A stretch of DNA of 64,000 nucleotides from Eggerthellaceae bacterium (GTDB lineage Bacteria; Elusimicrobiota; Elusimicrobia; Elusimicrobiales; Elusimicrobiaceae): contig CAVHDF010000001.1 of assembly GCA_963634865.1 (NCBI GenBank), forward strand, positions 22,294-86,293. The letters are read 5' to 3'. The notes under the pieces are model-generated. The model saw only the letters and a program-made list of their open reading frames with translations. It searched no databases and had not been told where the DNA came from. The position numbers were made by a program, and so were the translations under genes. Below are positions 1,669 through 26,293 of the stretch, piece by piece (positions within the stretch are counted from its first letter, which is position 1; every line of letters starts with the position of its first letter).

Positions 1669-2306
1669 CCCGCGAAGAATCCCTACTTTTCTCCAGGGCA
1701 GAAAAGTAGGCAAAAGACCCCACAATTTAATGTCCTTTTCTCCGGGGCAGAAAAGGACCAAAAGGCCCCGCGGGCCTGCGGAGCATAAAAAATAAAATTT
1801 TCTTATTCCGCCTTTAACTCGCCGCTAGGCAGCGGCTCAGACAAAAGGCGTATTTTTGTATGAAATTTTATTTTTTATAGACGCTCCGATGGCCGCTGTG
1901 TAAACGGCGAAAAGGCCTTTTATTTATGCCGTCATTCCCGAGGGTTGTAATCGGGAATCTCATCCTTATTGTCGTTGGTCTTTTGCTGTTAAATAAAACA
2001 GAGGTCATCCTGAAAGGTTGTAGTTCAGGATCTTCCATTTTTCTAGTAGTTGCCTTTATTAAACAAACAACGGGGAAAATGGAAGATGCTGAGCAGAGAC
2101 CCCTCAGCATGACCCTGATTTTTATTAACGGCGAAAGTGGTTGAGATCCCCGATAGAAGCATTCGGGGATGACGACGTTTTATGAAAGACATTATTTTTG
2201 TTTTGTCGTCGTAGAAGTTGGCAACCACCTCTAAAAAGCTTGCATAATGTTTTTTTTTTGATAAATTTTGCATATAGACAAAATTTATCAAAAAAGGAAG
2301 GCGAAT
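1669..2306. repeat. Composite palindromic repeat / pilin upstream cassette, copy 1
   Basis: Block-wise near-identical to 10509-11065: short hairpin units, long nested hairpin, REP-like palindromes, promoter block. Confidence 0.9.
2240..2295 (+). promoter_or_regulatory. Putative sigma70 pilin promoter with T10 spacer tract and overlapping 17-bp inverted repeat
   Basis: TTGCAT-16 bp-TAAATT with TG extension; ttttttgataaattttg-N8-caaaatttatcaaaaaa; same layout at 10999-11054. Confidence 0.6.
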
Positions 2307-2786
2307 ATGAAAAACTTCTCTACGGGCCGTTTAGGCGGCTTTACATTGATTGAATTGTTAGTCGTTGTTCTTATCATTGGCATATTGGCTGCCGTGGCTT
2401 TGCCCAAGTATGAGAAATCGGTAGAGCGGGCCCGCGCCGCCGAGGCCGAATCTGTGCTCAAAAGCATTGCCGCTGCACAAGATGTATATATGCTGACCAG
2501 TGAGGACGGATGTGCTACCTATGATTTTAGTTTGCTGGACATAGAAGTCCCGGAGTCAAAATACTGGAAATATAGTTTGTACGAATATATGGGGCCTAAT
2601 TCTTATGCGCTGGGGGCTGAGAGGGTCGGAAAAAATTATGACATTTTGTACTTTCGGGGATATGGCCCAGAGGATGGGAGCTTTTATTGCAGCGGTTGGG
2701 GAGATGATTCCACAGAAGATTGCTCCGTGTTTGGGGGCAAAGCTTTTAACCAAGAGTCTACCAATTGGAGCTTGGTCAAAATTTAA
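2307..2786 (+). CDS. Type IV pilin (PilE-like) with class III signal peptide
   Basis: MKNFSTGRLGG/FTLIELLVVVLIIGILAAVALPKY; AGGA before ATG 2307; C-terminal Cys pair. Confidence 0.92.
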   Translation: MKNFSTGRLGGFTLIELLVVVLIIGILAAVALPKYEKSVERARAAEAESVLKSIAAAQDVYMLTSEDGCATYDFSLLDIEVPESKYWKYSLYEYMGPNSYALGAERVGKNYDILYFRGYGPEDGSFYCSGWGDDSTEDCSVFGGKAFNQESTNWSLVKI

Positions 2787-10508: not shown

Positions 10509-11065
10509 CCCGCGAAGAAACCCTACTTTTCTCCAGGGCAGAGAAGTAGGCAAAAGACCCTTTTTATGTCCTTTTCTCTAGGGCAGAAAAGGACCAAAAG
10601 ACCACCGCGGAATATCTTACTTTTCTCCTGGGCAGAAAAGTAAGCAAAAGGCCCCGCGGGCCTGCGGAGCATAAAAAATAAAATTTTCTTTATTCCGCCT
10701 TTAACTCGCCGCTTATTAGCGGCTCAGACAAAAGGCGGATTTTTGTTGTAAATTTTATTTTTTATAAACGCTCCGATGGCCGCTGTGTAAACGGCGAACG
10801 GCAAAAGCGGCTGAGATCCCCGATAGAGACTCTCGGGGATGACGACGTTTTACAACGACTTTATACCCACTCTCTGTTGCCCTTGTCTTTATCTATGTCG
10901 TCATTCCCGAAGGTCGTAATCGGGAATCTCGGCCTTATTGTTTCTGCTGTTTATTTTTGTTTTGTCGTCGTAGAAGTTGGCAACTCTTTTTAAAACACTT
11001 GCACAATGTTTTTTTTTTGATAAATTTTGCGTATAGGCAAAATTTATCAAAAAAGGAACCCCATT
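10509..11065. repeat. Composite palindromic repeat / pilin upstream cassette, copy 2
   Basis: Aligns with 1669-2306; three hairpin units instead of two; REP-like block rearranged. Confidence 0.9.
10999..11054 (+). promoter_or_regulatory. Putative pilin promoter with T10 tract and inverted repeat, copy 2
   Basis: TTGCAC-16 bp-TAAATT; ttttttgataaattttgc / gcaaaatttatcaaaaaa. Confidence 0.6.
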
Positions 11066-11722
11066 ATGAAAAACTTCTCTACGGGCCGTTTAGGCCGGTT
11101 ATTCCTCAATGCCGTCACCCTGGAAAGTCGTAGTCCAGGGTCTGTTGTTACAAACAAGAGGAACACAACAGATGCTGGACTAAAACTTTCCAGCATGACC
11201 TTGTGTGATGAACGGAGAAGCGGCTTTACGCTCATTGAATTATTAGTCGTTGTGCTCATCATTGGCATACTTGCTGCCATTGCCTTGCCGAAGTATCAAG
11301 CGGCGGTGGCCCGCACCCGCTATCAGCAGTTGGTCATTGCGGGGACGGCCTTAAACAATGCCCAAAAACTGTTTTTTATGACCAATGGAGAATACCCCCA
11401 AAGTTTTGCAGAAATGGATATTTCTATGGGGGCTCCGCTTTCTGAGAAGTTGGTGCCGGTGGAAGGATACGGCAATCAGTTGGTTTTTAAGTGGAATTGG
11501 GGCAGTTGCGATTTGTCTCTGTACGGTGGCGGTGGCCGTACGCAGTGTCAAAGCAATTACTTTCCGGAGGTACCGGAGTTTACGGTGTACGCCGATGATG
11601 ATACTCGCCGCTATTGCCACGCCCAAATTGCCAGCTCTTTGGCCCAACAAGTGTGCCGGACGGAAACAGGGCGCAGCGAACCCTCCCACAAAGCGCCGAA
11701 TTTTTGGGAATACAAATATTAG
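11066..11722 (+). CDS. Type IV pilin (PilE-like) with leader extended by an in-frame palindromic insertion
   Basis: MKNFSTGRLG + 42 aa + G/FTLIELLVVVLIIGILAAIALPKY; four Cys in the globular part. Confidence 0.9.
   Translation: MKNFSTGRLGRLFLNAVTLESRSPGSVVTNKRNTTDAGLKLSSMTLCDERRSGFTLIELLVVVLIIGILAAIALPKYQAAVARTRYQQLVIAGTALNNAQKLFFMTNGEYPQSFAEMDISMGAPLSEKLVPVEGYGNQLVFKWNWGSCDLSLYGGGGRTQCQSNYFPEVPEFTVYADDDTRRYCHAQIASSLAQQVCRTETGRSEPSHKAPNFWEYKY
11096..11221. repeat. REP-like palindrome doublet inside the pilin leader
   Basis: gtcaccctggaaagtcgtagtccagggtctgttgt ... acaacagatgctggactaaaactttccagcatgac; 126 bp absent from the paralog at 2307. Confidence 0.85.
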
Positions 11723-25712: not shown

Positions 25713-26000
25713 TTATGGGTAAATCTCATTGTATAAATCTTTCCAATGTGGGTTTAATTGTTTGATTAGGTGCTCTTTCCAGGACCGATTCCATCTTTTT
25801 AATTGTTTTTCTCTTTCAATAGCATAGGCTATGTCAGTAAACTGCTCGTAATAAACAAGTTTATCCACCTTATACTTTTTTGAAAAACCTTCTTGCACTT
25901 TTTGTTTATGTTCGTATACGCGGCGAATTAAATTATTGGTAATTCCAATATATAGTGTGGTATGGCTTTTGTTGGTGAGGATATAGACGAAAGATTGCAT
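25713..26000 (-). CDS. Standalone GIY-YIG nuclease family protein
   Basis: FVYILTN, LYIGITNNL, RRVYEHK, LVYYE, AIEREKQLKRW, NPHWKDL; visibly AT-rich. Confidence 0.93.
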   Translation of the reverse strand: MQSFVYILTNKSHTTLYIGITNNLIRRVYEHKQKVQEGFSKKYKVDKLVYYEQFTDIAYAIEREKQLKRWNRSWKEHLIKQLNPHWKDLYNEIYP

Positions 26001-26040
26001 AATTTTAGTATAACAAGTTTGAAAATAAAAAACTTATAAG

Positions 26041-26293
26041 GCTGAGATCCCCGATAGAGACCCTCGGGGATGACGACATTTTACAACGGCCTGGCTATTC
26101 CGCCCATGCTGTCATTGCTGCAAAAGGTGGTAGTGCAACGGCGAAAGCGACTGAGATCCCCGAACGCTGCGCGCCGCTAGCCCCTCGGGAATGACATTTT
26201 GTTTGATAACAGCTTGGCTGTTCCGTCTATGCCGTCATTCCCGAAGGTTGTAATCGGGAATCTCAACCTTATTGTCTTTTGGTCGTTGCTTTT
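26041..26293. repeat. Cluster of REP-like palindromes, same family as in the pilin cassettes
   Basis: gagatccccgatagagaccctcggggatgacgac 26044-26077; partial unit 26111-26137; 26153-26195; gccgtcattcccgaaggttgtaatcgggaatctc 26231-26264. Confidence 0.9.

Follow-up and report, generated by a model that had tools for sequence, protein, structure and literature searches.

Introduction

The element described here has its closest known relatives in two groups of bacterial repeats. The first is the superfamily of CGTC REPs (Di Nocera et al. 2013, PMC3733652), which includes dRS3/CGTC-1 of Neisseria and RPE-4 and RPE-6 of Rickettsia. As defined there, a monomer carries a terminal CGTC (or TGTC/CCTC) ahead of an 8–9 bp stem, a loop of 4–5 nt and a CCA-like tail, with other loop sizes allowed in some families. 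RPE-1, one of the Rickettsia palindromic elements referred to in the same paper, is translated in frame, and RPE peptides remain in the mature proteins of many unrelated genes. The second group comprises the NTS/SRM repeats (Chenal et al. 2025, PMC11893778), hairpins with oriented flanks that cluster at pilin genes and flank the gene for a single-domain GIY-YIG protein of 95 aa, Ssn (family cd10448). In N. meningitidis this protein, SsnA, lowers the integration of NTS-bearing DNA. The only row for Elusimicrobiota found in that report, E. minutum, lists no ssnA homolog, and the part of the text available to us does not discuss intragenic copies (0 matches for 'intragenic').

Prepilins have class III leaders, which stay in the cytoplasm, differ in length and are cut off after a Gly or Ala residue (PMC10191384). 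Here we describe a repeat inside such a leader, found in a 64,000-nt stretch of an Elusimicrobiaceae genome (the window), and compare it with the whole source genome (G000; 1.46 Mb in 76 contigs, 94% complete), with two related species (G001 and G066), with the genus and with other phyla.

A repeat dimer lies in frame in a prepilin leader

The gene at 11066–11722 (+ strand) encodes a 53-aa leader (11066–11224) followed by a predicted mature pilin of 165 aa that begins FTLIELL (11225–11722). The leader is hydrophilic, its last residue ahead of the predicted cleavage by prepilin peptidase is Gly (...ERRSG|FTLIELLVVVLIIGILAAIALP), a hydrophobic stretch and Glu5 follow, and TIGR02532 matches residues 51–74 with 33.3 bits against a cut-off of 16.3. 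A sequence-only reading of the window had pointed to a 126-bp in-frame insertion just before G|FTLIE, and we reproduced it exactly: compared with the 11-aa leader (MKNFSTGRLGG) of the paralogous pilin at 2307–2786 (+ strand), the leader is longer by 126 bp, or 42 codons free of stops, at 11096–11221, with a junction position that is ambiguous by 2 nt. The insert is a class B head-to-head CGTC-REP/SRM dimer with ~18 and ~22 nt of flank. Its left monomer (11114–11143, + strand) is a GTCA-tagged stem-loop, and its right monomer (11170–11199, − strand) is inverted and places an internal ATG on the + strand. The predicted fold has a free energy of −50.9 kcal/mol (z −5.92), and none of 200 shuffled sequences was equally stable.

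Further monomers of the repeat lie in mosaic arrays upstream of both pilin genes, two of them at 10814–10843 (− strand) and 10900–10929 (+ strand), and a class C dimer at 2004–2113 ahead of the paralog. The same reading had placed the insert in the palindrome family of 2003–2114. Its arms do align to the 2004–2113 dimer, so that the two fall into one superfamily on sequence, but as separate subclasses: the nearest relatives of the insert are class B dimers (86/98 bp), found in 6 other leaders and ~14 intergenic copies of the same genome. Class C dimers measure 110–119 bp, often bear stops and were found in none of the leaders of G000; the class A spacer was not found outside leaders. A second palindromic family, ~52 nt long with a CTTTTCTCC..GGGCAGAAAAG core, also occurs in the upstream arrays (window 1669–1769 and 10509–10654).

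G000 contains 205 strict monomers, many of them as inverted pairs. In the insert, the left arm reads GTC-ACCCTGGA...TCCAGGGT and has a C just before it, and the right arm is tagged GGTC. In common with CGTC REPs (PMC3733652), the repeats have the tag, an AT/AC stem start, a short unpaired tail, head-to-head dimers, many copies, big mosaic clusters and some in-frame genic copies. They differ in monomer length (30–42 nt), in their CT/CC tail and in loops of 10–22 nt instead of 4–5, and they are not CGTC-1 to -4 by the definitions in that paper. Coding copies are also distributed differently, being confined here to one type of site, the prepilin leader, and present in half a gene family; the list of intragenic REPs in PMC3733652, as available to us, contains no pilin or prepilin gene. 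The hairpin, the oriented flanks and the clustering at pilin genes resemble NTS/SRM repeats (PMC11893778). As with RPE-1, the palindrome would be translated in frame, yet its peptide is restricted to prepilin leaders and predicted to be cut away. Membership in the REPIN/RAYT group was considered and rejected, the repeats being of CGTC type and not GTAG-tagged, and a search for the Y1/RAYT transposase gave no PF01797 match in the 94%-complete G000.

Leaders keep their reading frame and not their peptide

Leader starts were located first and the Phe site was then sought in any frame. Every complete long leader proved to be a multiple of three in length and free of stops (32/32 in G000, 20/20 in G001 and 24/24 in G066, thus 76/76 in three species), with 20 different lengths between 72 and 249 nt; six further long leaders of G000 were excluded as interrupted by contig ends. 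Among 235 distinct one-base variants, 75 were synonymous against 68 expected under neutrality, and stops were absent where 4.9 were expected (Poisson P ~0.008). The frame is therefore kept while the peptide is not. Part of this pattern is built into the element, since 9/11 intergenic class B dimers preserve frame as well.

The location of the repeats was also restricted. Prepilin leaders contain 79 of the 205 monomers and the arrays ahead of pilin genes another 79; 42 lie less than 1 kb from contig ends and 5 in other intergenic positions, so that 158 of the 163 placeable ones lie within or just upstream of pilin genes. None of the 205 was found in other coding sequence, taken as ~1181 further, roughly predicted genes of G000. 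The earlier proposal that class III leaders act as safe harbours for this repeat is thus supported by frame-only conservation, absence from other coding sequences and recurrence across species and phyla at unrelated junctions, the cleavage itself being predicted.

The repeat is not always harmless, and its price is visible in four pilin genes that have lost their start at a junction within the repeat (C18:5394 in G000; L203, L206 and L218 in G066) and in L056, where a stop is present and no start was found. These four genes, in which the deletion took the promoter or the start, are possible silent copies. In G001, the leader of L026 (1 of 30 starts in that genome) runs into a stop after 27 codons and precedes a lipoprotein-like gene, with no pilin.

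The genomes are fragmented assemblies that break within these repeats. Contigs assembled independently from four public runs, belonging to ~91%-identical relatives, carry these modules too, as well as the 93-nt deletion form. The elements themselves are thus unlikely to be assembly artefacts, although this does not vouch for each linkage; none of these contigs spans the stretch of the 11066 locus.

Translation appears to start upstream of the repeat

A stable hairpin near a start codon invites other explanations, both of them raised by the sequence-only reading, one as a suggestion (tuning of translation by the hairpin) and one as an objection to its own proposal (a start at the internal ATG). 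The hairpin may be kept as an RNA control element for translation or mRNA stability, as its very high stability would allow; or translation may begin at the internal ATG and leave the repeat untranslated, as the arm does supply an in-frame ATG in one of the two frames used genus-wide and, as Di Nocera et al. caution, REPs that seem to be N-terminal are in many cases actually extragenic (PMC3733652). However, the repeat arm offers no in-frame ATG in any of the 47 class A leaders of G000, this ATG is missing from 3/29 class B leaders, and it is from the upstream ATG that frame is conserved. The region of the internal ATG is also predicted to be less open (0.26–0.57) than the upstream start (0.56–0.60). 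Openness at that upstream start is about equal with and without an insert (0.56 in 54 short leaders, 0.60 in 23 of class A and 0.58 in 24 of class B), which gives no support to tuning of initiation, and genes tolerate the in-frame loss of hairpin sequence, with leaders of 72, 90, 93 and 111 nt left. We consider both of these explanations very unlikely.

A large pilin family shares a common 5' module

G000 encodes 123 prepilin N-termini, 99 of which form one family with a common promoter-plus-leader module at the 5' end, as well as a PilD-type prepilin peptidase (C15:24014). The leaders of this family are short in 44 members, of class A in 47 and of class B in 7, and one is a start-less chimera, giving 55/99 insert-bearing pilins. 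In consensus, the module combines a TTGCAN box with a spacer of 16 bp that includes ten consecutive Ts (T10), the ribosome site AGGA and the residues MKNxSTGRL. Ahead of the gene studied here the module occupies 10999–11068 (+ strand) and reads TTGCAC, a 16-bp spacer with the T10 run at 11009–11018, TAAATT, the AGGA ribosome site and the ATG at 11066; judging from these motifs it probably functions as a promoter. A consensus promoter scan did not report this poly-T promoter.

The T run is a regular part of the module. T10 was found in 46/50 scored copies and a few had 9 or 11, and 72/77 T-runs of at least 9 nt in G000 lie within a pilin module by rule, 4 of the remaining 5 being in a like context. 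The motif is present in 92/96 genomes of the genus, in numbers that track pilin number (rho 0.68). The T10 spacer (window 10999–11026 and 2240–2267) is a candidate phase-variation switch. An inverted repeat overlaps the −10 box and the ribosome site (window 11008–11059 and 2249–2295); it is conserved among paralogs, its two arms changing in step, and may represent an operator. Pilin number itself is highly variable, ranging from 5 to 217 N-terminal motifs per ~1.5 Mb genome in the genus of G000, and in the contigs of G066 the forward strand carries 55/65 motifs. The genome of E. minutum reportedly also contains many pilE-like genes.

Leaders turn over between sister species

The ortholog of the 11066 gene in G066 is 82% identical past residue 30 and lies in a block that is syntenic from the upstream gene through a phosphoglycerate mutase-like gene. 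Its insert is also 126 bp long, and of class A. Across 39 loci that are syntenic on the 3' side between G000 and G066, the leader state was equal in 13, against a shuffle mean of 10.6 (P 0.22); it differed in 26/39, and 15/39 were swaps between A and B. Unique synteny on both sides holds for only 9 of the 39 pairs, of which 5 differ in state. Overall, G066 is rich in class B (6 A, 21 B and 20 short) and G000 in class A. No genome other than G000, G001 and G066 was found to have this leader, and each of the three contains every state of it.

Signs of recombination were found in the leaders themselves. The two class A loop variants occur in all four pairings (11, 11, 10 and 5), and L225, L028 and L029 are A/B chimeras. 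Array copies between genes match the class B inserts at 78–94% over 66–116 nt, often into the flanks. Concerted evolution of the 5' module by gene conversion appears to be the best reading of this exchange.

The short leader of the 2307–2786 paralog had earlier been taken for an apparent empty site that suggests recent mobility; every insert would then have arrived in an empty leader recently and by a transposition of its own. Short and long alleles do coexist, and direct repeats, which a MITE or other recent transposable insert could leave as a target-site duplication, exist at some junctions: 11–13 nt at both junctions of some copies (C2:54078), and a duplicated Gly-Phe site around the repeat in L123 and L256. 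Junctions also vary among distant species and phyla, which implies many entries at that scale. Within G000, however, the long leaders share one common junction in 55 paralogs and have leader-specific flanks, and the class A spacer, as noted, was found in leaders only. States are exchanged between loci, swaps from A to B at 15 of them are impossible by simple insertion, and the genome, as noted, yielded no Y1/RAYT transposase. The claim of an empty site fares no better: the G066 ortholog is of class A, state is independent of locus in the 39 pairs and, because in-frame hairpin deletions show that loss occurs too, a short leader does not prove an ancestral empty site. Independent transposition, which we rate as highly improbable, is thus largely refuted within this clade, and gene conversion of the module remains the preferred reading.

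Pilin bodies are replaced and Ssn-type genes adjoin the repeats

Exchange is not limited to leaders. At 12 of the 39 G000/G066 loci, the pilin body is unrelated past the first 70–100 nt and the downstream DNA is 88–97% identical; the 3' breakpoints lie close to the stop codon. For example, the locus of the 2307–2786 gene holds an unrelated body in G066 (L194). For several replaced bodies, a similar one (61–75% identity) is present at another locus of G000.

The window also contains a single-domain GIY-YIG gene of 95 aa (25713–26000, − strand; PF01541, E 5.5e-16) with three repeat monomers directly upstream (26045–26263). With Y6, Y17 and E64, numbered as in N. meningitidis SsnA, its product is a putative Ssn-type nuclease; no PDB match to a solved structure was found. 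It resembles the Ssn/NTS system (PMC11893778) in size, domain content and adjoining repeats, and its activity is predicted. G000 has two such genes, the window copy with repeats on one side and the copy on C4 with repeats on both. A repeat lies less than 400 bp from 30/31 Ssn-type genes (23 on both sides), as compared to 18/600 random windows of G000, and repeats are present in 41/43 genomes of the genus with an Ssn-type gene versus 11/53 without; as related genomes are not independent, these statistics are associations. In G066 and G001, the locus of the window gene (25713–26263 with its repeats) also carries an Ssn-type gene (L264, L261), but in inverted orientation and only 66–70% identical, within flanks that are 86–94% identical.

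These observations raise the possibility that the repeats serve recombination: Ssn would nick hairpins in single-stranded DNA at pilin 5' modules, and repair would swap leaders or bodies between loci or strains, resulting in antigenic variation from a 100-gene repertoire. The near-confinement of monomers to pilin genes, the 12 replaced bodies ahead of well-conserved downstream DNA, the inverted and divergent Ssn-type locus and a median of 87 pilins in genomes with an Ssn-type gene against 38 in those without are all consistent with it, as is the presence of Neisseria pilE among NTS-flanked genes (PMC11893778, supplement). On the other hand, six genomes with 71–206 pilin motifs contain no repeat by the strict pattern, so pilin expansion can occur without the repeat; N. 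meningitidis SsnA lowers, and does not raise, integration of NTS-bearing DNA (PMC11893778); and no common repeat was seen by eye 3' of the pilin genes among the matches listed. We consider this role of Ssn doubtful.

A parallel is found in the prochlorosin genes associated with TnpA-REP (Laurenceau et al., bioRxiv 10.1101/2020.03.09.984088), likewise a large family with constant leaders and variable bodies, which is linked to an enzyme directed to single-strand hairpins and for which diversifying recombination was proposed. That enzyme is an HUH transposase and not a GIY-YIG protein, no leader-internal repeats are reported in the part of the preprint available to us, and its authors see no strong evidence for causation. 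In its fullest form, the model of Ssn-driven exchange would amount to a new type of pilin shuffling in gut Elusimicrobiaceae, in which ~100 dispersed genes carry a poly-T switch and Ssn-target hairpins, nicking drives the exchange of 5' modules and whole variable domains, and the cleaved leader hosts the recombination signal at no cost to the pilin. This extended form strikes us as rather unlikely. Gene conversion of modules that carry the repeat along is our preferred account.

Repeats in leaders recur across the genus and other phyla

A repeat arm 6–45 nt ahead of FTLIEL was detected in 31/96 genomes of the genus, which are not independent samples. Among the 150 matches listed of 264 genus-wide, none has the arm in the frame that reads TGA (123 and 27 are in the others), and 22 distinct lengths occur. 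By an automatic rule, the repeat falls within a leader that has an ATG and a ribosome site of its own in 64 of 86 distinct FTLIELL cases, and ahead of a separate ATG in 8; of the others, 11 are truncated and 3 lack a start. A left-hand duplicate of the Gly/Ala-Phe site, the scar expected of insertion, was found by automatic rule in 9/64 leaders.

A scan of all genome representatives returned at least 108 stretches, of which 80 were examined. Beyond Elusimicrobiota, leaders with in-frame repeat dimers include at least those of gspG in four sphingomonads, and further ones in two Rickettsiales, one planctomycete-titled record and one Parcubacteria record. Twelve stretches were dropped as chance or non-pilin matches (L088, L090, L094, L103, L112, L118, L128, L135, L137, L138, L142 and L149); in L106 the repeat lies upstream of the gene's own ATG, and L254 and L257 have no repeat dimer. 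In the genus of G120 the arrangement is rare, with 5 matches in 251 genomes and a real dimer in 3. Since junctions differ between species, the repeat entered leaders several times.

Two of these genes have unusual structures. In a Rickettsiales pilin-like gene (L123:1–1040), a cluster of repeats has a copy of the first 12 mature codons on either side, so that the cleavage site is regenerated. The leader of L143 comprises three tandem 14-codon units derived from a repeat arm, and beyond ~18 residues its body no longer follows the pilin pattern.

Discussion

The insert at 11096–11221 is a head-to-head dimer of CGTC-REP/NTS type. In our judgement it is probably translated, only to be removed by prepilin peptidase, and probably spread among ~100 paralogs through gene conversion of the 5' module. 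The identity of the repeat, its open frame, the neutral peptide, its absence from other coding sequences, the swapping of leaders at orthologous loci and the chimeras were observed directly. We propose that the repeat entered the Gly-Phe junction once or a few times long ago, in an ancestor of G000, G001 and G066. Class B dimers may then have been copied into leaders from upstream arrays via arm homology, conversion of the common module would spread leaders among paralogs, and deletion of the hairpin would account for in-frame loss. The repeat peptide is predicted to be discarded with the leader, and Ssn may be the enzyme acting on the repeats, which are best explained as tolerated passengers of the module and not as needed parts of it.

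In-frame REPs were already known (PMC3733652). New are the copies in prepilin leaders and the turnover of the module: we found no report of repeats in prepilin leaders in the literature, including the supplements of PMC3733652 and PMC11893778 as far as these were available.

Our results suggest a general rule: in class III leaders, which are cytoplasmic and cleaved off, selection on the coding sequence maintains only the frame, and selfish repeats collect there for this reason. The rule would cover Elusimicrobiota as well as the single-copy gspG of sphingomonads. It would follow that prepilin peptidase accepts leaders of 50–80 residues whatever their sequence, and that the start sites of long-leader genes are likely mis-annotated. 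These Elusimicrobiaceae would also be a second lineage in which Ssn-type nucleases occur with repeats concentrated at pilin genes, and the measurable turnover between sister species (26/39 leaders, 12/39 bodies) offers a handle on how CGTC repeats spread.
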